Part shown: piece by piece, positions 2,220 through 58,742 of the stretch | Position numbering within the stretch: position 1 is the stretch's first letter | Layout of the letters: each line of letters starts with the position of its first letter | Source: a virus | Virus record (IMG/VR): IMGVR_UViG_3300017917_003388 | Span: 1 to 64,000 of that record | Length of the DNA stretch: 64,000 bases | Strand: one strand, 5' to 3' | Position numbers and translations under genes: made by a program | Notes under the pieces: model-generated | What the model saw: the letters and a program-made list of their open reading frames with translations, nothing else | Databases searched by the model: none | What the model was told of the DNA's origin: nothing

Positions 2220-2251
2220 CAATATAAAATTTAAGATTTTAAAATCCTAAT
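2220..2251 (-). promoter_or_regulatory. early promoter repeat copy
   Basis: Same motif as 597-630. Confidence 0.75.
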
Positions 2252-2282
2252 AAAAAGGGTGTTCAAATTAATGAACACCCTT
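2252..2282 (-). terminator. intrinsic terminator abutting promoter repeat
   Basis: AAGGGTGTTCA-loop-TGAACACCCTT with T tract on minus strand. Confidence 0.8.
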
Positions 2283-2306
2283 ATTCAATTACATCAAATT
2301 AATATA

Positions 2307-2885
2307 TCAAATGGCTTGATATAATGCGTTAAGAGCTCGAATATTAATCATTTTATCTGAATCAATATTTGCTCCAATTCTACCCACTTGGATACCTAAC
2401 TCTTTTCCATCAATGATATTAAAGGCATCAACGATAGTTTTCATTTCTTCTTTAGTAAATGAACGGCATCCCCAATTCACTCCACTACCAGGAGTAATAC
2501 TACTTTCATATCCTTCAATTTCTATTTTTTGAGCAAGTTTAGTTACTCTAAAGAAATCAGGATTATCAAATAATGGGTCATATTGTGTGTTGAATGGTGT
2601 ATTTAAATCATATGGGCATCCGGGGTATGATTTGATACACTCAACCATAACTAAATCTCCTTGATTTGGTTTATCACTCATAAAAAATTCAGGAGCCCAA
2701 TTGTAATTTCCACCATCAATATCTAAGCGTACTCCTTTGTTATTTACACTTGTAACAGTACCTGTTTTACCACGATATGATTCCATATCCGATATAAATG
2801 CTACACCTTTTGAAGATTCGACCCCCCTTTTAATATCAGTTCGAATTGTGTAAGATTGTCCGATTTTTACGTTTGTTAATTCCAT
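2307..2885 (-). CDS. NWGCR-family paralog with SH3-like N-terminus
   Basis: CIKSYPGCP...IEGY...VNWGCRSFTKEE. Confidence 0.85.
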   Translation of the reverse strand: MELTNVKIGQSYTIRTDIKRGVESSKGVAFISDMESYRGKTGTVTSVNNKGVRLDIDGGNYNWAPEFFMSDKPNQGDLVMVECIKSYPGCPYDLNTPFNTQYDPLFDNPDFFRVTKLAQKIEIEGYESSITPGSGVNWGCRSFTKEEMKTIVDAFNIIDGKELGIQVGRIGANIDSDKMINIRALNALYQAI

Positions 2886-2913
2886 TTGTTTTTGTTTTTA
2901 GTTTATATTTGGA

Positions 2914-3747
2914 TTATTTGTTTAAATACTTATTGAGTTTTGAAATCACATAGAAATTCACTTTTGTGAAACCTTCTCCATCTCGCCCAATTCCAATATT
3001 AAGATCTTTTCTTTGGAAAATACCAAATGCTTGATCAATAATAGAAATTTCATCTTTAGTAAAAGAACGACATCCCCAATTTACGTTTCCTGCATCTTTA
3101 TTTACATTCATTTTATATCCTTCAATCTCCATATCCATGACACCAATAGATTCAGTATAATTTGGGGTAAAGAAATCAGGATCGCTAAAATAACCATCAG
3201 GGAATTGACATATTTGGTCTTTATTAATTTTATCCCCTACATTGAATGGACAGTTTGGAAATGTTTTAATACATGTATATGAATCTAAATCCCTTGATTC
3301 AATTTCCAACAACATTTCAGGTGTATAATTCCAACCTCTATAAATTATCTTATTTTTATCTGAATTTAATTTGGTGCATTCAATATATTTACCAAAATAT
3401 TTTTACATTTCATGCATAACTGAATCATTCCCATATCTTTGATGTACAACTAAATCAGGTCGTACTAAATATGTTTTCCCAATTTCAAGAGTACTTGGGT
3501 GATTGAAAATATCGGTAAGAGTAATTTCAGAATGTAGTTCACTTTCGAAAGATTTGCTACCCTTCTGTGTATATGTTAATTTTAAATCACCATTGATGTA
3601 ATAATGTCCGGGAGTATATCTAGAATCATCCCACCTTTTCCAGGAATTATGACTATCTACACCTAATTCTTTTAACCTGTCAAAGATTAGAACATTAATT
3701 TTTTCATCATCGAAAAGACGAATTTTTTTCATTTGTAAATTTACCAT
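2914..3747 (-). pseudogene. NWGCR-family paralog interrupted by an in-frame TAA at 3403-3405
   Basis: ORFs 3403..3747 and 2914..3315 share a frame; the intervening codons read EM*KYFGKYIECTKLNSDKNKIIYRGWNYTPEMLL. Confidence 0.75.
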
Positions 3748-3795
3748 AACTGTTTGTTTTTTGTTTTAAGGGTTTTTTCTTAATTTCTTGATATT

Positions 3796-3829
3796 GTAAA
3801 TATAAGATTAAAGATTTTGAAATCCTAAT
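3796..3829 (-). promoter_or_regulatory. early promoter repeat copy
   Basis: Same motif. Confidence 0.75.
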
Positions 3830-3837
3830 CCCTGAAT

Positions 3838-4269
3838 TTATTTATTTGGTAATTTAAAACAAACTCCATTAAATACTGATGATTTGGAATTAACTAAATA
3901 TACATCTAAATCAGGGTAAATACTTTTTAAATAATTTTCAATCAAATGTGTATTACCTTTAGTTGAATAATATATTTTTATTCTTCTAATTGATTTATTT
4001 TTATTCAAATCATTAAAATAATATATTTTTCCAAATTTAGACTTAATATCATTAATTATATCTTTGTAATTATAATTATCCAAAATTGGTGTATTTTCAA
4101 TTATATTTATCTTATTTTTATCCCAATTATATTTTACCTCGGCATCATATGAATATTCATCAGGATTAATTTTATATTTACTCAATGCTTCTTCTTCAGT
4201 TTCAGCAATAATTACAGATTCTATATGTAATGTTGCTGGTATTTCTTCTTTTATAATAAATGTTTTCAT
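3838..4269 (-). CDS. hypothetical protein
   Basis: 143-aa ORF. Confidence 0.7.
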   Translation of the reverse strand: MKTFIIKEEIPATLHIESVIIAETEEEALSKYKINPDEYSYDAEVKYNWDKNKINIIENTPILDNYNYKDIINDIKSKFGKIYYFNDLNKNKSIRRIKIYYSTKGNTHLIENYLKSIYPDLDVYLVNSKSSVFNGVCFKLPNK

Positions 4270-4472
4270 TTTCTAATTAATTGTTTGATATAAACATATA
4301 TTTTGTTAAAAATTGAAAAAATATATGTAAAAAATCCGATAATCCCTAATACTATAAATACAATGTTAATCCATATTAATCCAATTAAAAATACAACAGA
4401 TGATATGGAAAATAATAATATAATAAATAATAAAAATAATAAAAATGATATAACCATTTGTTTTTAGGATAT

Positions 4473-4504
4473 AAAAATACCCACACCGTGTAGATGTGGG
4501 TATT
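4473..4504 (-). terminator. intrinsic terminator
   Basis: AATACCCACA...TGTGGGTATT hairpin with T tract on minus strand. Confidence 0.7.
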
Positions 4505-4724
4505 ATTTGTTTTAAAAATATTAACTATTTGTTGAAATAATGTTCTTGGAACTCTTCAAAGGATATTAATTTATATCCATCTCTTACAGTATGACCCCAT
4601 AGTTTATCACTATGTAAATAACCATAAGCACTTCCATCCCTTTCTGCTAAACATTGTATTTTCCAACTTCTCCATTGTTCCATAATTTCAACATTTTCTC
4701 TAGTTAGGCGAACTGCCCATTTAC

Positions 4725-5375
4725 TCAACTTTTTTTTTGAACTACACCAGTTGTCTTAAACTCAATATATTGTTCAAGTTTTTCAAGTTTACTAGCAGGA
4801 ATTGGATTCCTAACAGCTCTTCCAGTAGTAAAGCCAAGATCATGGTCATTCAAAATACGAACTGCTTTTACCACTGCTGAAAAATCTTCTCTGGTAAATC
4901 TACGACATCCCCAATTAATTGTAGAACCATCATCACTAACTTCAACATTATAACCTTCAATATTCAATGCTGGTTTTTTCATTGTTGGGATTGTAGGAGC
5001 CAGTACCGCTTCAAAATATTCAGGTAAAAAATACTCAGTTGGATGGTCAGTTAATTTAACTTTTTGCCCAACTTTATATTGACATCCAGGGAATGTTTTA
5101 ATACATACATAATGACTGATTGTGTCTTCTGAAGTGGTTGTTGGTTGATCTACCAAATCTAACATACTTTGAGTCCATGTTACATTTGGAGAATTGAGTC
5201 CAAAATCAATTTTAACACCTTCATTGCGTACAATATTAGTTACTACTCCTTCTTGTCCAGCTAGTTGTTTCATTCGTTCTGTTAAGTCATATTGACCATA
5301 AGGTTCCATACGAGGATTTTGTTTTACTCTAACTCTATCCCCAACATTAAGACTATTTAATTCTTCTTTTTTCAT
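4725..5375 (-). CDS. NWGCR-family paralog with SH3-like N-terminus
   Basis: LNVGDRVRVK; CIKTFPGCQ...IEGY...INWGCRRFTRE. Confidence 0.85.
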   Translation of the reverse strand: MKKEELNSLNVGDRVRVKQNPRMEPYGQYDLTERMKQLAGQEGVVTNIVRNEGVKIDFGLNSPNVTWTQSMLDLVDQPTTTSEDTISHYVCIKTFPGCQYKVGQKVKLTDHPTEYFLPEYFEAVLAPTIPTMKKPALNIEGYNVEVSDDGSTINWGCRRFTREDFSAVVKAVRILNDHDLGFTTGRAVRNPIPASKLEKLEQYIEFKTTGVVQKKS

Positions 5376-5418
5376 AACTGTTTCTGTTTTTGTTTTTATT
5401 TATTAAAAAATTTGAAAT

Positions 5419-5844
5419 TTACTTGATTGGATGAATGTAAAAATAAATATGTGTTGGATATTCATCAGTTTCAAACACATACAATAATGTAGGACATAAC
5501 CACATCATATGATCATCTTCAACACACAAATAATACCCACCACTGTTAACAGGAGGGTGGTTATATCTAATTAGTGTTTCAGCATCGTAACCAATTCCGC
5601 AGTTTACTAAATTTTTACAATTTTCAAATTCACTATTCGAAACTGTAACAGTAACACGGTCATTTCCATATGAGTATTTCTCTAAAAATGTATCAGCACC
5701 TGCTACCATTAATAGATTTCCTTTAAAACCAAACCCACCTTCTAAAAAATCGGGTAGATCAACATACCACAATCCATTTTCTTTAACAAAATCAATTGTT
5801 TTGTGAATAGGTTTTTGGGTAACCTCAATTTGTGTATTTTCCAT
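5419..5844 (-). CDS. conserved phage hypothetical protein
   Basis: WYVDLP...LLMVAGADTFL...WLCP motifs. Confidence 0.75.
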   Translation of the reverse strand: MENTQIEVTQKPIHKTIDFVKENGLWYVDLPDFLEGGFGFKGNLLMVAGADTFLEKYSYGNDRVTVTVSNSEFENCKNLVNCGIGYDAETLIRYNHPPVNSGGYYLCVEDDHMMWLCPTLLYVFETDEYPTHIYFYIHPIK

Positions 5845-5861
5845 TGTTTTTTTTTATTATT

Positions 5862-5895
5862 GTAAATATAAAATTTAAGATTTTGAAATCCTAAT
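5862..5895 (-). promoter_or_regulatory. early promoter repeat copy
   Basis: Identical to 6564-6597. Confidence 0.8.
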
Positions 5896-5897
5896 TC

Positions 5898-6533
5898 TTA
5901 ATCTTTAAGAGAATTTAAATAGTCAACCAAATGACCAAATTCATTTGGGTCTACACTACTAAATAATCCATCATATCCTAATCCAAACTGTAAATCTTTA
6001 TTTTGGAGCATAAGTATTGTTTTATATGTATCTTTAATTTGTTCAAAAGTAAATTCTCTACAACCCCAATTTACAGTTTTACTTGATTCATTTATATTAA
6101 GTTCATAACTATGAAGTGTTAAATTAAAATTAGGCATATTAACTACTTCAAAATCAAAATATTCAGGATCTACTAAATGACATAAGCCATCATCGACCAT
6201 ATTTCTTAAATCAAATATATCTCCTTCCTTTACACCGGGAAATGATTTTTTACATCGGATCAAATTACCTATTGGTTTAATCTCATTATTCCCAAAATTC
6301 CAATTCACCTGAGTATTAAAGTTAATTCTACCTTCTGTAGATTCCGACTTAATCCCAATATTAAGATCCTTTACACTACCAAACCCATATGTTGGTTCTT
6401 TCCCATTTAAATCCAAAATACCCAAACCAATATAGGAACTAGAGGTACTAATGTATCCAATTTTAGATAATGGAGAAAATTCTTCATAACCACTTGTTAG
6501 TTTGGTTTTGAAATCAATAATTTGTTTTTTCAT
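5898..6533 (-). CDS. NWGCR-family paralog
   Basis: CKKSFPG...DPEYF...VNWGCREFTFE. Confidence 0.85.
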   Translation of the reverse strand: MKKQIIDFKTKLTSGYEEFSPLSKIGYISTSSSYIGLGILDLNGKEPTYGFGSVKDLNIGIKSESTEGRINFNTQVNWNFGNNEIKPIGNLIRCKKSFPGVKEGDIFDLRNMVDDGLCHLVDPEYFDFEVVNMPNFNLTLHSYELNINESSKTVNWGCREFTFEQIKDTYKTILMLQNKDLQFGLGYDGLFSSVDPNEFGHLVDYLNSLKD

Positions 6534-6563
6534 AACTGTTTGTTGTTTGTTTGTTTGTTTATT

Positions 6564-6597
6564 GTAAATATAAAATTTAAGATTTTGAAATCCTAAT
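6564..6597 (-). promoter_or_regulatory. early promoter repeat copy
   Basis: Same motif. Confidence 0.8.
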
Positions 6598-6599
6598 TC

Positions 6600-7229
6600 T
6601 TAATTTTCTTCAAAATCAATAGTGGTTACATTTAAAATTTTCCCATCAATTAATCTAACACATTTTTTAGTATCTTCCAACACAACACATTCCTCAGAAT
6701 CAATATGTATAAATTCTCCTGGTTTTAATTTTTTTAAACCTATTTTAAAAATTGTTTTAAGTATCTCTTTTTGTTCAGAATTTGAATGTTGATATAACTT
6801 TTTAATAAAATCCTGACTTAAATATACTTCTCCTTTTCTTAAAAGTTGAGGACCTACTTTTTCATCAATAATTTGTTGCCATTTATAACAAGCCTTATCG
6901 ATATATTTTCGATATGTTTCTAAAGTTAACATATATCTTTTATCATCATTGGTAGATGTAAAATGTTTTTTGATACATGAAATAAAAAAATCCAACATTA
7001 ATTCTGTACCATTACAATCAATATAACTCATCACCACCCTATCATTGCCTAAATAACCTTTAACTATAAATAAATTATCTGCACCAATAATAGTACTACC
7101 ATGTTTTACTTTATCAAATAAACCTTCATACCAACTTCCATTTATTTCTGGAAGTGAACAATTAAATGTTGATCCTAATTTATAATCTTGTTGATCAGGA
7201 TGGGTTGGGGTTGATTTCATTTTTGGCAT
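6600..7229 (-). CDS. hypothetical protein, paralog of 626..1273
   Basis: Shared C-terminal domain. Confidence 0.8.
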   Translation of the reverse strand: MPKMKSTPTHPDQQDYKLGSTFNCSLPEINGSWYEGLFDKVKHGSTIIGADNLFIVKGYLGNDRVVMSYIDCNGTELMLDFFISCIKKHFTSTNDDKRYMLTLETYRKYIDKACYKWQQIIDEKVGPQLLRKGEVYLSQDFIKKLYQHSNSEQKEILKTIFKIGLKKLKPGEFIHIDSEECVVLEDTKKCVRLIDGKILNVTTIDFEEN

Positions 7230-8162
7230 AATTGTAATTTATTTGGGGTTTTAGATTATTCTGTTGAGTTATTATGTTTATGTTTATTTCTAGAGTATTT
7301 CTTCCCACAAGGTTTAAATTTTTGAATCATTTTGCGTCTTATAATTTGAGCAACATGACGTTCATTTAATCCATTTATGGTTTTTTTATCTTTCATGGTT
7401 ATTAAATCCAAGTTTTTACTTTATATGCTTCATAATCATATAGATTAGGACCATAGTGTGATAAACCTTCTGTAACTCCATATTTTATTACAGTGTTATT
7501 TTTAAGATTTCTACTTTCCCAAGTCCAATAACCTTTATTATCTCGAACAGGTAATGTGATTACTTCACACTTAATTCCGATATTGTATTCAAATTCGTAA
7601 TGTATATCACCTACTTTAATATTTTCGACAATTACATTACCTTTAGTTAGTGTTGCCATAAATTGATTTACATTTCATTTATAACTCTTAACTCTCCAGC
7701 ATTTGCATATCTACCGTTAGATAGTCTAAAACGTATTGGTTTACAACCATATCCTGTTAGTATTCCACCTTGTTTAACAGGATATTTTTTTGATTTTTTC
7801 TTACCAACTACTGTTACAATTGTACCAATCATATCTTTTTTATGTTCATGAGAGGTACATTTGAATACATATGATTCTCCTATTTTTACATCTGTCTGTT
7901 TCATGTTATTCTCCTTGTAAATATTCTTCTAACGCATCTCTATAATCATAGAGTTCATCATATGCTTGTTCACTTAATAATTGAGAACATAATATATTTT
8001 CAATTGTTTCAAAAATATATTTAAGAGCTGAAAAATTTGATTTTTCAAATGGTTCACCAGCAAATGAATCTCTAAATTGTTCCGAAACTGCTGAACCATG
8101 AATTGAAGTAATATAACCTTCAATTAAATTTTCTACTGATAACATTTTATTTTTTCTTTATT

Positions 8163-8196
8163 GTAAATATAAGATTAAAAATCTTAAAATCCTAAT
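8163..8196 (-). promoter_or_regulatory. early promoter repeat copy
   Basis: Same motif. Confidence 0.7.
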
Positions 8197-8197
8197 T

Positions 8198-10003
8198 TTA
8201 AAATATAATTTTTTCTACTTCACTTCTAATTTCACCTAAATTAGTTTGATTAAAGAATTGACCATTTTTATAAATAGTTTTTAACATATTTTCTTCACTA
8301 TTGTATTTTTCTTCAGATACTTCTCCTTCAACCATAATTTCTCCTTTTTGTTCATATACAAATTGGAATCCTTTTAATGATTTTTTAGTACCATCATCTG
8401 TAATTGGGTCTTTGTATATATTATATATGTTGATTTCAGTCCATTGAGCGGGTTCTAGAGCTTCTGGGGATTGAGAAGGTAACCAATCAGACATTTCTTC
8501 TATGGTTTCAAACCAACAACCTTTAATAGCATACCCAGCTGAATCTCTTGTTAACATAACATAGGTACATGAACCTACACCTACTACAACATTTGTTGCA
8601 GCAAATCCTTTAGCAGCCAAACGTGTATAGATATTTACTTGACGTTCTAGGTTAATTGAGTCGCCATAGATACAACCAATATGTGAATCCAAACGTTTAT
8701 ATCCTGTTGAAGTTGTTTCTCCTCCAAAGATATCCCAAAGAAGTTCTACTACACCTTTGTGTTTTGGTTCAGGTGATACTTCTTCCCACTCAGCGTGATG
8801 AGGCAAATTAATTAATTTATAATATTTATCACCATTTTTCCAAATAGTATTATGCCAATGTTCACCAACTTTAGGATTATCAGGATATGCCCTACCTGAT
8901 TGGTCATAATTCAAATTACCAACCTTAGATTCACCACAAACAATATCTACAGGATCACCTGAGTCAGGACGGATTACTAATTTGCCTTCACGAGCAAGAA
9001 TCAAATCTTTTAAACGTGGTAAAATATGAGTAATAACTTTCCAAAGGTTCATAGTATCAGATACAACTGAAAGGATACCTTTTGGGAATTTTTTCAACCA
9101 ATCACGAAGATTCAAACACTCTGCAATCGCAAGATAATCAGGGTTTTCAACAGAACCTTCACTAGGTACATCTTTAAATGAGTAGTACCATTCAATTTCA
9201 TGATTTAGTTTACCTTCACGAAGTTGTTTTTCATAATAGAAAATACCTGTACAAGTAACTGAGTGTTCAGAAGCATTTACTGAATAGATAGGTACTTGAT
9301 TTTCATCAAAATCATAGTAATATCTTGATGCTGGGATTACATTTAGTGTATCACTTCCTTTATTTGAGAAAGCATGACCTAAACCAACAGCAATTGAAGT
9401 AAATGGATTACCTCCTCGTGAATGAAAATCATGACACATGAAATCTGCCAACCATAAATTTTCTGGGTCTGTTTTTTTAACAGCTTTTATAGCATTTTTC
9501 TTAAATTCAAGTCCAATAGTAGCTGCAGTAGGACATTGCCATGACAATTTAGACACTAATGTTTCTAGAAATAAACCCAACCATGCATAATCATCTTCTG
9601 TATTAATACCAGACATATGGGGAATGTTTGGGTTTGTAAGAATACCTTCTTTTAATGCTTTAATTTCTACAGGAAGATAACCTAATGTATGTAATTCACT
9701 AAATCCCTTAAAATCATAAGGCATCATAAGATATTCAGACATATCTTTTGTGAATTTATGAGCAACTTCTATAGGTTGATCAAAGAAATTTTCTTGGAAC
9801 GTTGAATGGATGTAACGCCAAGTAATTTGTTGTCCACCACTCATAATTTTCTTAATACTTGCAGGCATGTATTTAAGATTTCGTGGAATCCAAGTCCATG
9901 CTTCACGTGAAGTATGAGGAGCAATCATTAAAGGATGTCCTACTTTATATCCATCAGCTTCATATAATGGATTAATCTTAAATGTTTTATTTAATTTTTC
10001 CAT
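8198..10003 (-). CDS. nicotinamide phosphoribosyltransferase-family protein (NAMPT/Namat-like)
   Basis: DGYKVGH, HDFHSRG, ASEHSV, SVVSDT, IRPDSGDP, IYGDSI, KDPITDDGTKKSLKG motifs. Confidence 0.95.
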   Translation of the reverse strand: MEKLNKTFKINPLYEADGYKVGHPLMIAPHTSREAWTWIPRNLKYMPASIKKIMSGGQQITWRYIHSTFQENFFDQPIEVAHKFTKDMSEYLMMPYDFKGFSELHTLGYLPVEIKALKEGILTNPNIPHMSGINTEDDYAWLGLFLETLVSKLSWQCPTAATIGLEFKKNAIKAVKKTDPENLWLADFMCHDFHSRGGNPFTSIAVGLGHAFSNKGSDTLNVIPASRYYYDFDENQVPIYSVNASEHSVTCTGIFYYEKQLREGKLNHEIEWYYSFKDVPSEGSVENPDYLAIAECLNLRDWLKKFPKGILSVVSDTMNLWKVITHILPRLKDLILAREGKLVIRPDSGDPVDIVCGESKVGNLNYDQSGRAYPDNPKVGEHWHNTIWKNGDKYYKLINLPHHAEWEEVSPEPKHKGVVELLWDIFGGETTSTGYKRLDSHIGCIYGDSINLERQVNIYTRLAAKGFAATNVVVGVGSCTYVMLTRDSAGYAIKGCWFETIEEMSDWLPSQSPEALEPAQWTEINIYNIYKDPITDDGTKKSLKGFQFVYEQKGEIMVEGEVSEEKYNSEENMLKTIYKNGQFFNQTNLGEIRSEVEKIIF

Positions 10004-10015
10004 AATTATATTTTT

Positions 10016-10450
10016 TTAACATACATCATCTAAATGTTTGAGGGAATTTAATTTTATCCGTTGAGCATACATTGCTTGTCTTAATATTTCTTTTGCTTCT
10101 TCAATTCCTGCTCTGTCGTCTAGATATATATTAGCATATGGTTTAGTTTTATTACCATATGGTAAATCTATTGGATTAGAATTGATACTATCTATTTCTA
10201 ACCCTTTACTTCTACAATATGATTTTATATATTCAAATCTATCTTCATGGCAAGCAGTAAATATAACTATATATGCTCCTGTATTTTTTACTTCTTTAAG
10301 TAAACTAATAGTATCATCACATTCCTCATCATTTGTTAATTTCCAAGGACTAATAGTATCATCAAAATCCACAGCTATTAAAATTCGACTATGTACTTCC
10401 CATTCTTGGATTAGTCTGTCTAAATATTTATTATTTACTATCTTCATCAT
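10016..10450 (-). CDS. HAD-superfamily hydrolase
   Basis: IAVDFDDTI, IFTAC, KPYANIYLDDRA. Confidence 0.85.
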   Translation of the reverse strand: MMKIVNNKYLDRLIQEWEVHSRILIAVDFDDTISPWKLTNDEECDDTISLLKEVKNTGAYIVIFTACHEDRFEYIKSYCRSKGLEIDSINSNPIDLPYGNKTKPYANIYLDDRAGIEEAKEILRQAMYAQRIKLNSLKHLDDVC

Positions 10451-10946
10451 AATAAACTATTGTTAAATTACAATCTGTAATTTCATAACTTAATATTAAT
10501 TTGATTAAATCCCAATTTCCATTAGCTCTACCTGCTCCTATTTTAGGAATACCTATATTTTTACCTTTAAATATGGTATTTATCTTTTTCAAACAAACTG
10601 AAAATGCATCGTAATCTATATGTTGGGATAATGGACCAGCAGGGTTAGTAGATGTACTCCAAATTTGGGTATAAGCATTTACAACTATTAATTCATGTTC
10701 TTTTTTATTATTTTTACCATCATTTAAATTCCAAATTGCTTTTTCCCCAATAACAAATGTATTATATTCAATATTTCCTAGATTTTCAATACCTTGACTA
10801 AAGAATTGATCGGCTTTAAAATATTTTACAAAATCTTTTGCAATACCTGATTTCATTGTTCCTTGACAATTACACCCATGAACTATAACATCAAATTTTT
10901 TATCTAATGCTAAAGATATTAAATTACCTTTAATTTCTTGAATCAT
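10431..10946 (-). CDS. macrodomain (ADP-ribose binding/processing) protein
   Basis: GNLI, VHGCNCQGTMKSGIA, VNAYTQ, PKIGAGRANGNW. Confidence 0.9.
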   Translation of the reverse strand: MIQEIKGNLISLALDKKFDVIVHGCNCQGTMKSGIAKDFVKYFKADQFFSQGIENLGNIEYNTFVIGEKAIWNLNDGKNNKKEHELIVVNAYTQIWSTSTNPAGPLSQHIDYDAFSVCLKKINTIFKGKNIGIPKIGAGRANGNWDLIKLILSYEITDCNLTIVYYDEDSK

Positions 10947-10948
10947 AA

Positions 10949-11719
10949 TTAAAATAAATTAATCACATGTAAATTATCAAAATTCAATCCTGAATTACTA
11001 TCTATGTATTCTAAATTTTTAGAATTAGTAGTAAATATTTTATCAAATAAGTTAAATAATTCAGGGTTTGGATTAGGAATGGTTAAATGGCTTATAGCTA
11101 AATATAATTTACCTACATTTCTTGTTTTTAACATTTTAGCAAGCCCAATAAATGTTCCTCCATAAACACATATATCATCAACAATCAATATGTCTTTTCC
11201 TTCAAAATCTTTTTTATCAATAATTTGAGTTAATTTATGTGAATTTGGATCTCTTGACTTAGATGCTGAATATATGTGGTCCCATTCTAATGTTCCTGCT
11301 AATTTTACCAATGGTTTAAACCCACCAGCATCTGCACTAAGTAAAAGTAAATTTTCTAATGATTTAATTTTGAGTAAAACCTTAGTAATGAATTCAGTAT
11401 TATCAATGACTTCACAATTTCTAAGTAAAGCAGATGTTACATCACTATGAGGATGAAATACTTTTACTTTTTTAAAATTACAACTATTTATAAAATCACA
11501 AACTATTTGAAGTTCAAAACTTTCATTAGAATTAAATCTCCTATCATGCTGTTGTTGGAACATACATGGTATTATAATTTCATCTAAATGTGGATTTGCA
11601 TCTTTGATTGATTTAAGTAAAAATAAATCTTCATAGTTATTTATTCTATAAATAATATTATTTTCATTTAAATCATTTATTACATATTTACCACCATCAG
11701 GATAATTAATTATTTTCAT
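10949..11719 (-). CDS. ribose-phosphate pyrophosphokinase-family protein (Adps-like)
   Basis: QQHDRRF, HPHS, SADAGG, LIVDDICVYGGTF. Confidence 0.9.
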   Translation of the reverse strand: MKIINYPDGGKYVINDLNENNIIYRINNYEDLFLLKSIKDANPHLDEIIIPCMFQQQHDRRFNSNESFELQIVCDFINSCNFKKVKVFHPHSDVTSALLRNCEVIDNTEFITKVLLKIKSLENLLLLSADAGGFKPLVKLAGTLEWDHIYSASKSRDPNSHKLTQIIDKKDFEGKDILIVDDICVYGGTFIGLAKMLKTRNVGKLYLAISHLTIPNPNPELFNLFDKIFTTNSKNLEYIDSNSGLNFDNLHVINLF

Positions 11720-11720
11720 T

Positions 11721-12632
11721 TTATAATTTTTCTAAATAATTAATGTGAAACCAAAATCCTTTGTCATCTTTTACATAAATTCCATCAGGAGCAGGTTCAG
11801 AAGAAAATCCTGGTAATATACTGCTTATCCCTATTCTACTATCTATTAATTTAATATCTTTGATTCTTATTATTGTATCATGCCAAGATGAACAGTGGTG
11901 AAGGGAATTATATCGTTTACGATTAATATTAATTCGAACATTGTCATTTAGAGAAAATGTTTCTTTATCATCTTTTCTTATAAATGATTTAATCGAATAA
12001 TTATTAAATATATAATTCCAAGTATCTCTATTATCAAAATATCTAGTACCATTATGTAGTCTTATCCCATAATCATTAGGTTCTATTGGATTTTGTTGAA
12101 TGAATCCTGAAGTTTTATCAACTAACGATAATATATCAAAATCATCAAAAAATCCATTATTTTCATATTTTTTAAATTTATTTTCTACTAAATACCTATA
12201 TTCAGCAAAATTTAATCTAATGTATTTATGGGCATATGAATCTACACTATTATATGAAAATTTATAAAGATCATACTCCGCTTTTTCTGTTATACCCCCA
12301 TAATATGGGAATGAATATGCTTTTGCTTCAAAATGTGCCTCAAAACCTGGTTTAATAACCAATTGTTTGAAATAATCAAATTCAAGTTGATTTAAAAATT
12401 CAACTATATAATAATCATTATGGGGGTCAAAATTATATACTTCCCAAAACTCAGGATTATTTTCAACATGGGATACATCAATGTGAGTTAAAACTACATT
12501 TTTATTTAATGTTTTATAATAATATCCACCTTCATTAAATACAACCATCCCTTCATACCAATCTTCTGGGATTCCTGGGTATTTATTTTTTAGAAAATAA
12601 GCTTTTGGTTTTGGATTAGTTTGTTTATTCAT
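11721..12632 (-). CDS. hypothetical protein
   Basis: 303-aa ORF. Confidence 0.75.
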   Translation of the reverse strand: MNKQTNPKPKAYFLKNKYPGIPEDWYEGMVVFNEGGYYYKTLNKNVVLTHIDVSHVENNPEFWEVYNFDPHNDYYIVEFLNQLEFDYFKQLVIKPGFEAHFEAKAYSFPYYGGITEKAEYDLYKFSYNSVDSYAHKYIRLNFAEYRYLVENKFKKYENNGFFDDFDILSLVDKTSGFIQQNPIEPNDYGIRLHNGTRYFDNRDTWNYIFNNYSIKSFIRKDDKETFSLNDNVRININRKRYNSLHHCSSWHDTIIRIKDIKLIDSRIGISSILPGFSSEPAPDGIYVKDDKGFWFHINYLEKL

Positions 12633-12655
12633 AACTTTTTAATTTTTTTGATTAA

Positions 12656-13300
12656 TTACCAACCCATGTGTGGGTTATCCATGTATACTTGAACTTGGTT
12701 TCTTATTTCATTAGTAGGGATTCGATTAGTATCCCAAGATGCTCTTATAAATAACCTCCAACCATTTTTAATAGCTTGAGTACCTTGATGCCATGTTCTA
12801 TCATCGAAAAATATTATTTGGTTTGGATCAGCATTACATCTTATTAATTTACCATTATTACAATGTTGTATTACTTCTTTATGCCATTCCTTATACACCA
12901 CACTATGGTTTTCAGGATTAGTAAATTCACATTCCCCCAAGGCAAATTCAGTAGGACATATATCTCCATTGTATAAAATTAAAGCATGTTTACTTCTATA
13001 TGATGGATTATTATATTCTGGTTGTTTATCACTTCTTTCACGAGGCACATCATCATGGTGAAAACCAGGAATGCATGGATACCAACCAGGCATTAACATA
13101 TGTAATCTACTATCTATTACTATTGAGTTTAAATCAATACCATGTGATTCTAAACCCATTAAGAAGTCATATGTAGGACCTATACTATGATGACAACAAA
13201 ATTCAGCATCAGAATTAAAGAACATGGGTTCTAATTTTAATACTTCATCTGGGTAAGGTTTGAGTTTTAAACCTAATTTAATTTCAGAATTGATTAGCAT
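12656..13300 (-). CDS. putative 2OG-Fe(II) dioxygenase-fold protein
   Basis: PGFHHDD (HxD), distal WHQG, RLFIR. Confidence 0.6.
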   Translation of the reverse strand: MLINSEIKLGLKLKPYPDEVLKLEPMFFNSDAEFCCHHSIGPTYDFLMGLESHGIDLNSIVIDSRLHMLMPGWYPCIPGFHHDDVPRERSDKQPEYNNPSYRSKHALILYNGDICPTEFALGECEFTNPENHSVVYKEWHKEVIQHCNNGKLIRCNADPNQIIFFDDRTWHQGTQAIKNGWRLFIRASWDTNRIPTNEIRNQVQVYMDNPHMGW

Positions 13301-13545
13301 TATTTAGATATAATATATTGATGTGAAATAGTATTATATCCATTTTTTATAGGACATTGATTTGGAAATTTACCATCTCTACTATTATCATGTGTAATAA
13401 TCATATTTTCATAAGCACCTTTATCTTTCCAATAAGGATGATTACATTGCATTCCATCTGTTGATGTTCCAAAAAACGGACAACTATTATAACATTGGGA
13501 TATTACTTCTGAAACAGATATTTCCATCTTTATTTTTTAAGTTAT

Positions 13546-13579
13546 TCAAATATAGGATTAAAGATCTTGAAATCCTAAT
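13546..13579 (-). promoter_or_regulatory. early promoter repeat copy
   Basis: Same motif. Confidence 0.7.
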
Positions 13580-28378: not shown

Positions 28379-28675
28379 CTATGAATATTAATCCTTCTTT
28401 ATCTGTGTTTTCTACTAATATATTAGTTCCAAAGTAATATATTGGACCTAAATATTCTTTAATTATATATTTATCTTCTTCTAAATATGATATCCGTCTA
28501 GGTCTATTACATGATCTAAATTCTCTTGGAGTTAATCTACACCATGTATCACCCAATTGTACTTCACAATTATTAGTTGTATCAAAATCATATTTTAATT
28601 TTTCCAAACCACCTGTTTTTTCAGACATAAACATTTATTTAGAATTATATTTTTTTGTTAAAAAGCTTTTACATT

Positions 28676-28755
28676 TTTCAACAAAATTTATATTTTTATT
28701 CATATAATTTATTAATTATTAATTAATTAGAGAGTATTACGTCTAAGTATACGTT
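28676..28755 (+). repeat. direct repeat (other copy 52826-52898), attC right-arm-like, ending at GTT
   Basis: Identical apart from a 7-nt indel; identity stops right after TATACGTT. Confidence 0.9.
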
Positions 28756-29086
28756 AACAGTAATATTATTTTTGTTTTGATTTTAATTCATTATAATAAT
28801 ACCTTTCAGCTTCTTCTTTTGTAAATGGTGGTAGTTTTTCTGCTTCCTTTATACTATCATAATCTGATTTTTCAAAAAAGCAACCGATTATATAAATTGC
28901 TATAATTATTAATATTGCTTCCATAGTTATTTTTTTAATAAGGTAAAACAATCAATCCATTGAGCAATTTCCCAACCGCTTTCGCTGTATTCGGGACATC
29001 TAACTAAATACCAAGTTTCTTCCTTTGGTTCTTTTTCTGTTGTTTTTACAAGTTTCATTTTACTTTGATTTGTGAGAAAGACCAGC

Positions 29087-29180
29087 GGCTAACAGCGGTT
29101 TTGCAATAGCCGCCTGACAGTTCTTGGTTAATAATTAAGTTCTTCTTTAGCGGCCATCGCAAAGCCGCAAAACGTTAGGC
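29087..29180 (+). repeat. attC-like site
   Basis: GGCTAAC-A-GCGGTTTTGCAATAGCCGC...GCGGCCATCGCAAAGCCGC-AAAAC-GTTAGGC. Confidence 0.8.
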
Positions 29181-29384
29181 ACAATTGTTAGTGACCACCT
29201 TTATATTTAAGTCTGAAAGAATTGCTGAAACTTCTTCTTTCATATCTTCATTAACATTTGACCAACAAGTATCTCTTTGACCATCCCATTTAGCGTGAGA
29301 TAAAGCACCATTACTAAACGCTTTTTCAAGCAATTCTTTCAGTTCATCGGTTGAAAGAATAAAACCGTTATCAAATTTTGTCAT
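29175..29384 (-). CDS. cassette-borne hypothetical protein
   Basis: Stop TAA lies in the core site; frame stays open into the next attC. Confidence 0.7.
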   Translation of the reverse strand: MTKFDNGFILSTDELKELLEKAFSNGALSHAKWDGQRDTCWSNVNEDMKEEVSAILSDLNIKVVTNNCA

Positions 29385-29399
29385 AATTAAAACAACTGT

Positions 29400-29494
29400 G
29401 CCTAACAGCGTATATGCAAGATACGCCACGAAGCGGTTTGTAAATATTTAAGTTTATTCTTTGGCGACCATCGCAAAGCCGCAGAACGTTAGCA
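29400..29494 (+). repeat. attC-like site (hybrid arms)
   Basis: GCCTAAC...GCCGCAGAAC-GTTAGCA. Confidence 0.75.
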
Positions 29495-29500
29495 TCAATA

Positions 29501-29917
29501 CTACGGAAGTAGTTCGATTACTTTTATTTGGTTAGGGTAAAACGCAACAACATTTTCATCCATTACCACACCATCATAACCGTTTTGTATTAATTTATTT
29601 TTTAATTTTAAGTCAATGTAGTTATAAGAGTAATCATAACCTTCATCATCTTTAATAGTATCACCTACGGCATTTCTAAATTTACCATCATCAGTGTCAG
29701 ATAAATCATATGGATTTTTTAAATTAAACTTAATTTTAAAAACATTCTCGCCATAAGTATTTGCAAAATTATAGTCCTTTGTACCATAAAAAACAGTATC
29801 TTCATCAAACAAAATTTCATCGTTGTTTGTGCCGTGTAGATAAACATCATTTACCACCTTATTTTTATTAAAATATTCTCTGATTGTAGTTGTTATGAAT
29901 TTCTTCAAATCTTTCAT
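29501..29917 (-). CDS. ADP-ribosyltransferase-fold-like protein with N-terminal leader
   Basis: YLHGT, FYGT...FANTYG, NLKNPY, GYDGV, VAFYPNQIK. Confidence 0.6.
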   Translation of the reverse strand: MKDLKKFITTTIREYFNKNKVVNDVYLHGTNNDEILFDEDTVFYGTKDYNFANTYGENVFKIKFNLKNPYDLSDTDDGKFRNAVGDTIKDDEGYDYSYNYIDLKLKNKLIQNGYDGVVMDENVVAFYPNQIKVIELLP

Positions 29918-51940: not shown

Positions 51941-52717
51941 TCAAACATCTTTTTTAACAATATAATATGTGCTACTTATATTACCTACATTAAATGAAAG
52001 TTTTAATAATCCTTCTAAATTTATATCCATATATGCCGATTCTGCATCTTTATTTACATTTAATATTTCTTTAAATAAATCAGAATTAAATCCTAACTTA
52101 AAATCAGACATGGGATCAATAAATGATTCTGATAAATTAATTGTTGAAAGATTATCTTTTATAAAATAACTAACTTTATTAGAATATTCTATATCTCCAC
52201 CAAATATTAATTCCAAACTATATTCAGATGAAAGTTCAATATCTGAATTACATTTTATCATTACTGTAGAACTATCATCTAATGCTGATTTTGCTTTTAT
52301 AAGAGATTGAATTATTTCTTTGTTTAGAATTGTTTTCAAATTATACTCTTCAGGACCATTATATTTTCCTGCTTTAGGAATTGTGATAGTATCAGCTAAA
52401 GTATATGAAACATTAAATTGATCATCAAATATATTTAATTTACTATATATATTACCATGTTTGGTTAAATCAAGATATACATCATTATTCATAATTGATA
52501 TAAGCTTATTTAATTGAGAAGTATTAAATATACCTATATTTGAATCACACAGATTAAAATTATTATGAGAAATAATACCTACCATTTCCCTGTTGGGAGA
52601 AGTAATTTTAATATTCAAATTTTTATTTTCTATATTCCATTCAACTGATTCTATTAATCCATTTAAATAATATTTATTTATAAGAGACTGAAATTCTGGT
52701 TTTTTGATTAGAAACAT
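51941..52717 (-). CDS. DNA sliding clamp (gp45/PCNA-like)
   Basis: Size, FKEIL...GLLKLSF...STYY C-terminus, replisome context. Confidence 0.7.
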   Translation of the reverse strand: MFLIKKPEFQSLINKYYLNGLIESVEWNIENKNLNIKITSPNREMVGIISHNNFNLCDSNIGIFNTSQLNKLISIMNNDVYLDLTKHGNIYSKLNIFDDQFNVSYTLADTITIPKAGKYNGPEEYNLKTILNKEIIQSLIKAKSALDDSSTVMIKCNSDIELSSEYSLELIFGGDIEYSNKVSYFIKDNLSTINLSESFIDPMSDFKLGFNSDLFKEILNVNKDAESAYMDINLEGLLKLSFNVGNISSTYYIVKKDV

Positions 52718-52825
52718 ATGGTTTTTTAATTTTAATTTAAATATAAAATAAATAATTTTATAATCCCAATTATAGTAAAGAAGGAATATCTTGAAGATTA
52801 TTAGCTAATTTTACATAGATTTGTG

Positions 52826-52898
52826 TTTCAACAAAATTTATATTTTTATTCATATAATTTATTAATTAATTAGAGAGTATTACGTCTAAGTATACGTT
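52826..52898 (+). repeat. direct repeat copy of 28676-28755
   Basis: Ends at TATACGTT. Confidence 0.9.
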
Positions 52899-52906
52899 GT
52901 AGGCAA

Positions 52907-53134
52907 TTAGTTTGCTTTCTGTACTGCGTCTACCATTCCTTCAAGGCAATTATCACAGCAAGTCGGTTTAGCATCATCATTGCAATATTCGCAAACTAAC
53001 TGTTCGCTTCGCCCTACAACAGCGTGTTTACGCAATGCTTCTGCATACTCTTCTGCAAAATTCATAGCCATTTCTAATGTCCAATTCCTTGTTTCAACCA
53101 TTCGTGTTGATTTGTAATAATCTTTTGCTGTCAT
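52907..53134 (-). CDS. cassette ORF starting inside the attC loop; C-terminal CxxC..CC..C
   Basis: MTAKDYY...LRKHAVVGRSEQLVCEYC. Confidence 0.7.
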   Translation of the reverse strand: MTAKDYYKSTRMVETRNWTLEMAMNFAEEYAEALRKHAVVGRSEQLVCEYCNDDAKPTCCDNCLEGMVDAVQKAN

Positions 53135-53190
53135 TCTATTTAAGTTTTTAGTTGTTGAATCGCACTGCGTAAACACGCAAAACGTTAGCT
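53014..53190 (+). repeat. attC-like site with a long coding loop
   Basis: CTACAAC-A-GCGTGTTTACGCAATGC...GCACTGCGTAAACACGC-AAAAC-GTTAGCT. Confidence 0.8.
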
Positions 53191-53394
53191 TCAATTGTCT
53201 AACCACCGCACACCTTTACCATCAAAAACATAAAATTCCTCATCTGAATTTACGTTTTTAAATTTCATCCCCCAACCAACATTTGTTAAGTCTGCACCCA
53301 TGCAAATTGCTGTTGCTTGGTAATGCGGATGGTTTTTATCAATTATCATTGCTTTTTTACCATCGAATTTTGTGTCTTGATGTTTCTGCTCCAT
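53191..53394 (-). CDS. cassette-borne hypothetical protein
   Basis: Stop abuts the core site. Confidence 0.7.
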   Translation of the reverse strand: MEQKHQDTKFDGKKAMIIDKNHPHYQATAICMGADLTNVGWGMKFKNVNSDEEFYVFDGKGVRWLDN

Positions 53395-53435
53395 TTTATG
53401 TTTTTTATTAATTTAATCCAACGCAAGGAAACTAA

Positions 53436-53518
53436 AGCTAACAGCACCTACCAGCAATAGCTGCATAAAGCTATCGCACTACCAAAGCTACTGCAATGGT
53501 AGCTGCAAAACGTTATAT
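53436..53518 (+). repeat. attC-like site
   Basis: AGCTAAC-A-GCACCTACCA...TGGTAGCTGC-AAAAC-GTTATAT. Confidence 0.75.
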
Positions 53519-53533
53519 TTAATTTAAAAATTT

Positions 53534-53647
53534 TTATGGATAGTATTGTTTATACCCCATCCATAAAAATATTATTATCGAACCTACCAACACTATTGCG
53601 AGTATTACATCTATTATTTGTCTGAAACTACCTTTGTAATCATCCAT
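53534..53647 (-). CDS. cassette-borne single-TM peptide (37 aa)
   Basis: MDDYKGSFRQIIDVILAIVLVGSIIIFLWMGYKQYYP. Confidence 0.55.
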   Translation of the reverse strand: MDDYKGSFRQIIDVILAIVLVGSIIIFLWMGYKQYYP

Positions 53648-53850
53648 GTTATTTGTATAAAAATTTTTGATATTAAATATAACAAAGAATATATGTAATA
53701 AATTTTTGTTTTCCTAATCTTTAATTCCTAAATCTTTCTTTAATTTTTCAAAAGACGATTGATCTACATGATATTTACACAAATGTGGTTTCTTAGGAGG
53801 AAGATAATTAGGATCACCCTTACGAATTTGTGGTTGTTTTTTTTTTCATT

Positions 53851-56436
53851 CTAAAATGTAAAAAATTTATTTACATTGGGATTTAATGATGGAAATTCCC
53901 AAGATAGATCATCATACAATGATTTTAATTTATTTGCTAACAACGATTCAAATATTTCCTCTATATTTATATATGTTTTAACAAATTCTTCAATTTCTGC
54001 AGGAATTTGGGCATTTGGTAAACCAATTGTTTCTAAATTATATGGGTTTTTCTTTAAATTAATAATGAATATCTTATCACCCTCAATAATAGATTCATAT
54101 TTTTTATCTAATTCTTTAAATTTAAGTAAATCATTATAACGTACTGCTGCTTTTGTATTACTTGGGGCTTTTAATTTAAATGAACTAAATATATCCCCTG
54201 TTCTAGCTGGTATCTGATATGCTGATATTTGTTTTACCCCCGTAGGTTTACCTAATTGTCTAGGATCTAGTGTTTTCAATGTTTTGTAAAAACCAATCAC
54301 ATCATTATCTATTTCGAATTTGGGTTTACCAAATAATATATTTTTAATAAAATTTTCTCCAAATTCTTTAAATAATTTATTCATATTGGACTTCATTAAT
54401 TCAAGTCCTTTCATATCTAGTTCTTCTACTGCAACACCTTCTTTGTTGGTAACATACATCGCATAACGACGTTTACCTGTTGTAAATACACCAGCACAAA
54501 TTACCTCTTGTTTTAATTGGAAATAATGAGTACCTGGTTTAATGTTGAATAAATTTTTACAAATAGTATCTAAATTAGCGTTTGATTCGTTTTGGATCTC
54601 AATAGCTAATTCTAGTATTTTATCATTTTTATCTTCAGGTTTAAGATTTAGAAATCTATGTTTAAGTAAATCCCCTAATACTATAAACATTGAATCAGTA
54701 TCTGAAAGACAAATGTGTTGTTTTTCTATTTTTAATTCAGTGTTTATTTTATTGTTTACAAAATTAATTGATTCACAAGTTAATCTTTGACCTGAGTTAG
54801 TGATAGCAGCACTACAAATTAAATATCCATCAGTGTATCTCCACCCGTTGATAGCAAAAGTCCCATAAAGTGCATTTTGGAGGATTTTAAAACTATGTTG
54901 ATATAAATCGTATAACTTATAGTTGGTCCAATCTTCGGCTTTACCTGCTATTTTCTTTAAACCACGATAATGTTCTCGTTTTTCAAACCAACCTTCTAGA
55001 ATTTTAGCAACTATGCTCTTTTCATCGGTTCTAAACATAGTTCCGGAAGCAGCAATTGTATATTCGTTTTTCTCAATTATATCAATTAAATCACCTATTT
55101 TAATAGTTGTAGATTTAAGTGTATAATTTACTTTATTTAACTTTTCAATAGTAATTATTTCATTAGGATCACGTTCTTTAAGTTTTTCTAATGAATGGTT
55201 TTGTTCATAAGTTGGATTGTGATCTACTTTAATCCTACCCACTAATGTTTCAATACCTAAATTCAATGATTTAATAATTGAAGGATATAGAGATGTAAAG
55301 TCCAAGTCAATTACATCAAAATATAGACCTGGAATTGGTTCTAATAAATATCCTCCAGCATAGCTTTCTTTAGTATTTTTTAGTATTGGATTATGAGTGG
55401 TAGGTTTATTTGGTGAAACAATACCTTCACGTTTAAGATATTTTAATATAGCACCCTCATTCATTACAGTATTGTAATAAATACTTTCATAAGGTATATT
55501 ACAAATATGTGAAATCATGATAGTTAACTCAATAAATTTAAGTTTTTCTTCTAATTTTTCAATAATTTCAACGTCTCGCAAGTTATATTCAATAAACGCA
55601 TTTAAATCATTTTTAAATAATGTGTTTAAATTACCTTCATATTCGATTTTACCTAATTCTACATATTTAATTCCAATATCTCCTAATTTATATGATGGTT
55701 CTTCCTTCATAATATATTTTTTATGAAGCAACATATAATCTAAGTGATTAACTCCACCAATTCGAATTTGAATCCCACCCGTAAATTCTGAGTAATCGAT
55801 TTTTCTAATTGGAGACATTCTTAGTAACTCATCAAGACCTACTATTTTCATAAGTCTAAAGTATAAATAAGGAATATCAAAATAAGCACTATTCCATCCA
55901 ATGATAATAGTTGGATCTAGTTCTTCAAATTTATCTAGAAATCGTTTTATTAATTCTTTTTCAGAACCACAAGGGATAATATGTTTACCATCTTGATTTG
56001 TTTCTTGTATTTCTTTACTTTTATCTACAATAAAACATATTTTTTGTTTTGTAGTTACATCTATTAAAGCAATAGAAGTAATAGGCATTGGGGCAGCCTT
56101 AATATATTCTGGTGTAAGTGCTCCCCCAATTTCGATCTCAATATCCAGATATAAAACATTATGCCAAGATGGAACAACATCATCAAATTTATAATAAAGT
56201 TCCCTCAATATAAGTAGTTCCTTATTAATATCCTTTTCTAATAAATTAGGATCTTCTTTATTGTATTTTTTAGTAGGTACAGCATATCCACCTGTTAAAA
56301 TAGGTTGAGCACCCTCTTCCCATTTATTAACACGTTTCCAATATGTTTGTTGATATTGAAATTGTAACCACCCTTTCACATCATCGCGTAAATGATATGT
56401 ATAATCACTGTAATCAAAATAGACTGATTGATACAA
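53851..56436 (-). CDS. family B DNA polymerase
   Basis: DIEIE exonuclease motif, DFTSLYPS, KILQNALYG, SDTDS, KRRY. Confidence 0.97.
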   Translation of the reverse strand: MYQSVYFDYSDYTYHLRDDVKGWLQFQYQQTYWKRVNKWEEGAQPILTGGYAVPTKKYNKEDPNLLEKDINKELLILRELYYKFDDVVPSWHNVLYLDIEIEIGGALTPEYIKAAPMPITSIALIDVTTKQKICFIVDKSKEIQETNQDGKHIIPCGSEKELIKRFLDKFEELDPTIIIGWNSAYFDIPYLYFRLMKIVGLDELLRMSPIRKIDYSEFTGGIQIRIGGVNHLDYMLLHKKYIMKEEPSYKLGDIGIKYVELGKIEYEGNLNTLFKNDLNAFIEYNLRDVEIIEKLEEKLKFIELTIMISHICNIPYESIYYNTVMNEGAILKYLKREGIVSPNKPTTHNPILKNTKESYAGGYLLEPIPGLYFDVIDLDFTSLYPSIIKSLNLGIETLVGRIKVDHNPTYEQNHSLEKLKERDPNEIITIEKLNKVNYTLKSTTIKIGDLIDIIEKNEYTIAASGTMFRTDEKSIVAKILEGWFEKREHYRGLKKIAGKAEDWTNYKLYDLYQHSFKILQNALYGTFAINGWRYTDGYLICSAAITNSGQRLTCESINFVNNKINTELKIEKQHICLSDTDSMFIVLGDLLKHRFLNLKPEDKNDKILELAIEIQNESNANLDTICKNLFNIKPGTHYFQLKQEVICAGVFTTGKRRYAMYVTNKEGVAVEELDMKGLELMKSNMNKLFKEFGENFIKNILFGKPKFEIDNDVIGFYKTLKTLDPRQLGKPTGVKQISAYQIPARTGDIFSSFKLKAPSNTKAAVRYNDLLKFKELDKKYESIIEGDKIFIINLKKNPYNLETIGLPNAQIPAEIEEFVKTYINIEEIFESLLANKLKSLYDDLSWEFPSLNPNVNKFFTF

Positions 56437-57962: not shown

Positions 57963-58742
57963 TTATTCTTTGTATTTCCAAACATAATCAAAAGCGGTTT
58001 TTTGTCTTCCTTTTAAACAAGCTGTTATACATGAATTGTTGATTGATTTTCCAAAATATTCAAGAGCATCTTTAATAGATTTAAACTCCTGAATTATATT
58101 ATTTTGTTGATCAAGTTGAAGAATGGGTTTACTATTTTTTTCTCCTATTAATTTATGATCAATCCTTGATTTAATTAAATTTCCAAATCCTGGGGGTTTA
58201 GGTTTAGAATTAGCTTTACTTATTTTTTGCTTAGTTTCCTCAGAGATAGGTATTCCTTTATTACTATGAACTTTACTATGTTTTTTACCTTTATTTCCTT
58301 TGCTAATTTTTTCTTTCATTTCACCACTCATAAATCCATCAGGTTTAGGTTTACCTTTATTACCATGGATTCTTCCTTCAGGTATATTATATTTTTGTCC
58401 TGTTTTAGCTTGAACTATTTTTTGTTTTTGCTCTTCAGTAAATTTATTTCCTAAAGCAATAATCTCCCCTCCAATACTTTTGTTTAGTAATATACCATCA
58501 GGTTCTATTCCTTTTCTTCCATATTTAGCTATAAATTCCATCTCAAGAGAACATGCTTCTTCTTTAGTAAGATTTTCTTTAATTATATCTACTATAGGTT
58601 CACCATGTTTTTTAATATAATTCTTATAATGAGAATTCCTTCCTGAGATAAAATCCCATGCTCTTTTATTTGCCCCTATTCCAACATAGAATAACTCTTT
58701 AGTTAGTGGGTTTTTATGATGGTATAAATAATAATTTTCCAT
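57963..58742 (-). CDS. GIY-YIG-like homing endonuclease with NUMOD3/NUMOD1
   Basis: YLYHH...FYVGIG, LLNKSIGGE, SEETKQKIS. Confidence 0.85.
   Translation of the reverse strand: MENYYLYHHKNPLTKELFYVGIGANKRAWDFISGRNSHYKNYIKKHGEPIVDIIKENLTKEEACSLEMEFIAKYGRKGIEPDGILLNKSIGGEIIALGNKFTEEQKQKIVQAKTGQKYNIPEGRIHGNKGKPKPDGFMSGEMKEKISKGNKGKKHSKVHSNKGIPISEETKQKISKANSKPKPPGFGNLIKSRIDHKLIGEKNSKPILQLDQQNNIIQEFKSIKDALEYFGKSINNSCITACLKGRQKTAFDYVWKYKE

Follow-up and report, generated by a model that had tools for sequence, protein, structure and literature searches.

A probable decayed copy of a phage-encoded, integron-type cassette platform between the polymerase and sliding-clamp genes of a large Bacteroidota-type phage

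Integrons count as bacterial elements, and attC recombination is taken to require both the I2 insertion of the integrase and extrahelical bases in the attC site, I2 having been described as essential for the reaction and as the reader of the extrahelical bases (PMC7790495, PMC8138268). In virulent phages, including a Polaribacter phage, Qi et al. (2023) reported CALINs with DNA methyltransferase cargo; the complete integrons of that study were acquired from bacteria by temperate phages, and its CALINs are orphans (PMC9892861). Almost no complete integrons were found in Bacteroidetes by IntegronFinder 2.0 (PMC9024848). Here we analyzed a stretch of 64,000 nucleotides (the window) from a phage genome that is complete at 174,694 bp, with direct terminal repeats, 98.5% of the long ORFs on one strand and a uniform GC skew. 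Judged from sequence comparison with relatives, an array in this window is very probably the decayed form of an integron-type platform, one that is itself encoded by these large Bacteroidota-type phages. The carriers of the platform are a family of large freshwater-type phages.

The array is flanked by genes for DNA polymerase B (polB; 53851–56436, minus strand) and a sliding clamp (51941–52717, minus strand), as an initial annotation of the window had correctly stated: the former belongs to the PolB family, and the AlphaFold model of the latter matches PCNA (E = 2e-11). After the clamp gene come GroES, GroEL and a clamp-loader AAA gene. The six GTT cores of that annotation lie at 52896, 53013–53020, 53184, 53435–53442, 53512 and 53672–53683, and in all three units the end is, as claimed, the reverse complement of the unit's own start. 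On the plus strand, the interiors of cassettes 1 (52896–53020) and 2 (53184–53442) have ends that are self-complementary at 8/8 positions, and those of cassette 3 (53512–53683) are so at 12/12; the chance figure for these own-end matches, 3.5e-11, is post hoc and carries no weight. The imperfect hairpins described between the units both fold, and best on the minus strand: attC1 (169 bp; 53018–53186, plus strand) yielded z = −2.15 against shuffles and attC2 (75 bp; 53440–53514, plus strand) z = −2.88, with a weaker fold of its plus strand (z = −1.52). In attC1 the bottom strand is the minus strand, the central spacer measures 5 nt versus 1 nt, and the arm is paired at 10/10 positions without a single-base bulge; the geometry of attC2 is the same. 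A strict attC scan of the complete genome, with a detector that required ungapped arms, returned three sites on a single strand, namely attC1, attC2 and one at 29176; the shuffled strand gives 0–1. To the earlier description we add half of a third site (attC3; 53681–53700, plus strand), of which only the core-side arm is present and which matches one arm of an intact 46-bp site in a relative (L053:3212–3257).

One small ORF had been assigned to each unit. Each unit does have one, on the minus strand, but the start of the first, at 53134, is located inside the hairpin loop, outside the unit as it had been drawn. The cassette 1 gene (75 aa; 52907–53134) has its leader and first 38 codons within attC1, the cassette 2 gene encodes 67 aa (53191–53394), and cassette 3 contains a 37-aa ORF (53534–53647). 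Pfam and PHROG searches with the three cassette genes (residues 5–75 for cassette 1) gave no convincing family match, and no function was assigned. No second array was found to contain an intact copy of any cassette of the window, and only two homologs of the cassette 2 gene were found. In the L004 homolog of cassette 2 (L004:147–345; 89%), similarity stops exactly at the core with neither attC nor attI after it, possibly as the result of a secondary-site insertion; the other homolog (L005:754–948) resides on a phage-like contig that is unrelated and showed no att sites on inspection by eye, a possible source pool.

The initial annotation had also found no integrase. An intact tyrosine or serine recombinase is indeed lacking from the complete 174,694-bp genome, but a remnant is present: at 52770–52853 (minus strand) we found a 27-codon in-frame fusion of integrase residues 1–9 and the last 18, from which about 237 codons are deleted. 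An integrase profile search of the whole genome returned only this scar and a scrap at 28635–28703. The scar DNA aligns to both ends of the integrase gene of a related phage (L002), with the last 18 residues identical; the window array therefore once had its own integrase and has lost it. The scar junction shows a 2-bp AA overlap, which raises the idea of a self-deletion by the integrase at a secondary core. Being in frame, the scar would leave expression of the clamp gene undisturbed.

Directly beyond the scar lies an attI-like site (52854–52898, plus strand) with an L box at 52884–52890, a 5-bp spacer and the GTT core at 52896–52898. The leader for integrase translation lies on the minus strand of this site, a similar sequence occupies the same position before the intact integrases of relatives, and its CTAA-N6-GTT spacing equals that of attI1 in L271. 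We also considered this left flank as a degenerate attC; this was ruled out, as 52854–52898 has no attC-like fold and its place is the one that attI occupies before intact integrases. Exact-pattern scans of viral and metagenome contigs for the attI flank gave no match.

The genome contains exactly two copies of the 73 bp to the left of cassette 1, one at 52826 and one at 28676. Both head an array, their identity ends right after the GTT, and the minus strand contains a start codon. The copy at 28676 belongs to a second decayed array, 24 kb away (28704–29490, plus strand), next to the second integrase scrap (28635–28703, minus strand), which consists of the first 22 codons and then a stop, and which shares 92% DNA identity with L002 over 132 bp, attI included. 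This array comprises, all on the plus strand, an attI copy that diverges right after the GTT (28704–28755), a fused cassette pair from which the intervening attC is lost (28753–29093), an attC (29091–29176), a cassette (29174–29406) and a hybrid, poorly pairing attC whose right half copies the neighboring attC (29404–29490). Beside it, at 29501–29917, lies a gene for a 138-aa ART-PolyVal ADP-ribosyltransferase, whose match to Pfam PF18760 exceeds the cut-off; in L163 a relative occurs as cassette cargo. Decay in this genome is seen in its three cassettes, the half attC, and the second copy with its fused cassettes and hybrid attC. The comparisons show that the integrase codons have been lost in frame, that half of the distal attC is gone, and that a second broken copy has been kept.

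Relatives were found with an alignment query, single-protein scans of viral contigs with the clamp and the cassette 2 gene having returned none; blastn against cultured phages gave short scraps only. In the closest clamp homologs (L001, L002, L003), a tyrosine recombinase of 264–265 aa is encoded directly upstream of the clamp, and an intact integrase in this position is seen in L001, L002/L003, L012/L013, L051/L053, L264 and L265. The whole integrase of related phages measures 264–269 aa, and their arrays reach about 19 cassettes, with at least 10 in front of the integrase in L002. On the 180-kb contig L264 the order is polB, 11 small genes, integrase, clamp, GroES, GroEL and clamp loader. 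In transcription order, the intact platform consists of polB, a putative promoter, n repeats of attC plus cassette, attI, the integrase, a putative promoter and the clamp. Among 59 viral loci with both polB and clamp, 37 have an empty junction of 11–53 bp; the remainder are L012/L013 and L053, with array and integrase, L045, and 18 with other inserts but no arrays. In L045 (9770–9995) the array precedes an integrase that belongs to a second clade and is truncated, an independent case of the same decay at this junction.

The platform is distributed patchily across the clamp tree, and at this spot L001, the nearest relative of the window, has an integrase of the other clade together with a different type of attI; these observations suggest that the platform has been repeatedly gained, replaced or lost among these phages. 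Change counts on this tree are indicative only, since L165, L167 and L168 were scored as empty despite an integrase 200–400 bp upstream and L213 is a spurious long branch. Homing-endonuclease-like genes occupy the polB-clamp junction of two relatives (L012:6390–6930 and L049:1960–2500), and another such gene, judged by eye from its translation, precedes thyA in the window (57963–58742). The junction has the appearance of a general insertion hotspot between repeated promoter-like motifs.

With at least two attC sites and no intact integrase nearby, the window array is a CALIN in the descriptive sense of the definition, yet it is an integrase-deletion derivative that keeps its attI. The initial annotation had regarded it as a phage CALIN dependent on a host enzyme; as an account of its origin this did not hold, because the lineage encodes its own recombinase at this very spot, and this genome retains the scar and the attI. 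One could still propose that the cassettes were captured from the host and are moved only by a canonical integron integrase of the host acting in trans, the adjacent phage recombinase being a bystander. This genome, with no intact recombinase, would suit such a scheme, and IntI1 is able to recombine some phage attC sites (PMC9892861). A 20-mer of the window attC at 29158–29177 is found in 90 GTDB stretches, nearly all Bacteroidota; this would likewise agree with capture from the host, and it points indirectly to a member of the Bacteroidota as the likely host of this phage. Beside some of their arrays, these bacterial genomes encode I2-less integrases. We nonetheless consider an orphan origin very unlikely. 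The scar and the attI are still present here, and in dozens of phages the recombinase occurs in association with attI and arrays. The extrahelical base read by canonical IntI, which class 1 controls show, is missing from the sites. Moreover, five Bacteroidota genomes with such attC sites contain no integrase above the IntI cut-off, and phage cassettes are small and antisense, whereas host cassettes are large and sense.

Of 80 viral loci with the integrase, 58 have at least 1.5 kb of upstream sequence, and 46 of these contain two or more contiguous attC sites. The arrays are always upstream of the integrase and in a single orientation, and usually end in an attI whose distance to the start codon is fixed. 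A match of a cassette's own ends over 4 nt beyond the core was observed in 230 of 287 cassettes (25 expected; maximum of 38 in 1000 shuffles), but neighboring cassette ends match in only 15 of 230. The genes have a median length of 83 aa and lie on the bottom versus the top strand in a ratio of 246:8; in 97 of the 287 cassettes, as in cassette 1, the gene starts inside its own attC loop. Three or four of the ten long cassette genes scanned in relatives encode DNA methyltransferases, and further cargo of the longer genes includes an RNA ligase, an exoribonuclease and an ADP-ribosyltransferase. In L053, two attC bodies that are 95% alike (2911–3035 and 6150–6274), each with a translation start, are joined to different cassette interiors, which places the same N-terminal peptide on different proteins and may be a trace of cassette making.

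Gain and loss of cassettes can be followed in two relatives, L167 and L168, which are 99% identical over 7.4 kb and whose integrases are identical at 264/266 positions. Relative to L167, a 392-bp unit is absent from L168 exactly core-to-core, and two extra cassettes are present exactly at attI. The idea of shufflable cassettes bounded at the GTT cores, put forward in the initial annotation, is thereby supported in relatives. Such precise junctions come from this one near-identical pair only; L200 and L202 differ at a point inside a cassette. What moves is a cassette interior together with the attC located 5′ of the gene, and this sets the polarity: the plus strand of the window corresponds to the top strand of an integron, and the minus strand, which is coding, to the bottom strand. 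The alignment shows cassettes gained and lost as these units, with crossover evidently at the AAC/GTT core and entry at attI.

These junctions also bear on the proposal that the hairpins are RNA signals, either processing sites or terminators, between which genes are swapped by homologous recombination. The hairpins do fold, are intergenic and in many cases hold a translation start, and similar bodies recur within an array. However, the L167/L168 junctions largely refute this proposal: they lie at the core, with dissimilar bodies on either side, and at attI, which forms no hairpin. Cassette ends match themselves and not their neighbors, and in bacteria the same hairpin polarity is combined with the opposite gene polarity. 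An RNA function as the explanation of the hairpins is thus extremely improbable.

A promoter-like motif (TWGG, 16–21 nt, TATATT), which may function as a promoter, precedes the clamp gene (52739–52769, minus strand). In the empty junctions of L007 and L042 it directly follows the polB stop. The genome contains 49 matches, 39 of them on the minus strand and many directly before genes, compared with 16.5 expected on both strands. A distal motif (53687–53716, minus strand), likewise a candidate promoter, points into the array and overlaps the broken attC3, and similar motifs are found ahead of the arrays in L012, L045 and L053. With a gap of 16–18 nt, the motif stands before many minus-strand genes across the genome and is densest near the genome ends, for example at G000:C1:156793–173000 and at 628–13577 of the window.

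The best Foldseek match of the phage integrase is VchIntIA (2A3V), and the catalytic residues R131, K156, H215, R218, H241 and Y250 are invariant in 29 homologs. The I2 insertion is absent; the alignment to 2A3V falls into two stretches and skips about 48 residues, and 53–55 residues separate the Lys from the HxxR motif, versus 100. The phage integrases score 145–153 bits against TIGR02249, below the cut-off of 265, and 129–150 bits against the XerC/D profiles, whose cut-offs are 330–335. A search for extrahelical bases, in which any spacer and a one-base bulge were allowed and class 1 attC sites served as controls, gave no bulge as the best fit for 240/244 phage and 102/102 Bacteroidota sites; in the controls the bulge was recovered in 3/4, two at the canonical position 4, along with the 6/5 spacer. 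The extrahelical bases that the initial annotation had expected folding to locate are hence absent. Matching parts are thus missing from both enzyme and site, and since I2 is reported as essential (PMC7790495, PMC8138268), the phage enzyme should not follow the textbook route. The R and L boxes of the phage sites, attC1 and attC2 included, are inverted and fold with an unpaired central spacer, which is mostly 5 versus 1–2 nt in phage and Bacteroidota sites alike; this lopsided spacer could itself act as a 3–4 nt bulge. Spacers vary between sites while the arms remain paired, as expected for a folded substrate without overlap homology.

A short enzyme of this kind might instead work by Xer-style chemistry, recombining double-stranded or cruciform sites through the L box, 5-bp spacer and GTT in two strand exchanges. 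Its lack of I2 and its Xer-like spacing in the catalytic domain (53–58 residues, versus 66 in XerD and 100 in IntI1) would be in keeping with this, and attI resembles half of an attC. The 5-nt spacers, however, differ between partner sites, and in duplex DNA a spacer mismatch blocks the second exchange of tyrosine recombinases. Own-end complementarity and covarying arms are needed only if one strand folds, and in the tree the phage enzymes, IntI1 and the integrases of Bacteroidota arrays form a group separate from host XerC/D (100/99, although IntI1 is represented by one long branch only). We consider Xer-style chemistry unlikely.

For a folded single strand as substrate, we propose the following mechanism. 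The short phage recombinase, with R-K-H-R-H-Y intact and without I2, would carry out the recombination, cleaving at the core of an attC whose folded bottom strand is also the coding strand. One strand exchange would be followed by resolution through phage replication. The folded-strand route is suggested by spacers that differ between partners, by arms that vary yet pair, and by own-end complementarity, which matters only in a folded circle junction. The genes, antisense to the classical polarity, would be read by upstream (distal) phage promoters, with the integrase as the last gene of the same transcript; this layout presumably serves to let the distal promoters transcribe cassettes, attI and integrase in a genome with nearly all genes on one strand. 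Replication may be co-directional with transcription, as the uniform GC skew suggests, in which case the bottom strand would be the lagging-strand template. The lagging-strand template orientation favors attC folding. The array of the window would be frozen unless a co-infecting relative or a related enzyme of the host acts in trans, and in this one genome either of them may mobilize the cassettes today.

Taken together, these data make it reasonably probable that lytic-type Bacteroidota phages run a shuffling system of their own, in which a minimal, I2-less tyrosine recombinase acts on folded single-stranded attC sites without extrahelical bases. The system would be a living counterpart of a pre-I2 step in integron evolution, re-wired for phage transcription by antisense cassettes and by attC loops that supply translation starts and N-terminal peptides. 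A widespread phage platform with integron-type gain and loss but neither I2 nor extrahelical bases would render the origin of single-strand recombination directly testable, and it could account mechanistically for part of the small, hypervariable gene complement of large phages. The window locus, as a dead copy, shows how a phage CALIN can form when the phage's own integrase is deleted in frame. The family probably escapes standard integron detectors.

The same layout is present in two cultured phages, Polaribacter phage Leef_1 (L242, MT732473, 3840–6855) and Cellulophaga phage Ingeline_1 (L243, MT732435, 5170–6792), in which the proposed system, if real, could be tested at once. Their integrases are 35–37% identical to the L002 enzyme and have an attI-like site and attC-bounded small genes ahead of them. 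Bartlau et al. took these integrases to indicate a temperate life style and made no mention of integrons (PMC8776804), a warning that such enzymes get taken as lysogeny markers. We found no description of a phage-encoded, I2-less integron variant in the literature, with subscription journals outside our coverage, and no paper describing the Bacteroidota chromosomal arrays with short integrases. In five such arrays (L080, L093, L105, L122, L139), the attC geometry is the same, attI is similar and the recombinases, also I2-less, are 36–44% identical to the phage enzymes. These integrases are divergent or co-oriented, and some are N-terminally extended (322–367 aa). The chromosomal arrays contain large genes, top to bottom strand 33:7, in contrast to the small bottom-strand genes of the phage arrays.

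With the phage CALINs of Qi et al., the platform shares attC arrays in virulent phages and DNA methyltransferase cargo; it differs in being an element of the phage lineage, with its own integrase clade and attI, so that the "CALIN" of the window is a demonstrable deletion derivative. With classical integrons (class 1 IntI1/attI1/attC; Vibrio cholerae VchIntIA, PDB 2A3V), it shares a recombinase that adjoins attI on the strand opposite to the cassette top strand, insertion at a simple attI of L box, 5-bp spacer and GTT, and folded attC sites with cassette-specific end complementarity. Classical integrons, however, have I2, an extrahelical base and a spacer of 6 versus 5 nt, whereas the phage system has neither of the former and a spacer of 5 versus 1–2 nt. 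Their genes are read on the top strand from Pc near attI; those of the phage arrays lie on the bottom strand and point toward the integrase, with no Pc-type arrangement seen. Unlike classical integrons, the phage platform sits in the replication operon of a 175-kb phage. Its gain and loss of cassettes are of the integron type, but three features place it outside integron membership: the missing I2 insertion, the lack of an extrahelical base and the polarity of its genes.
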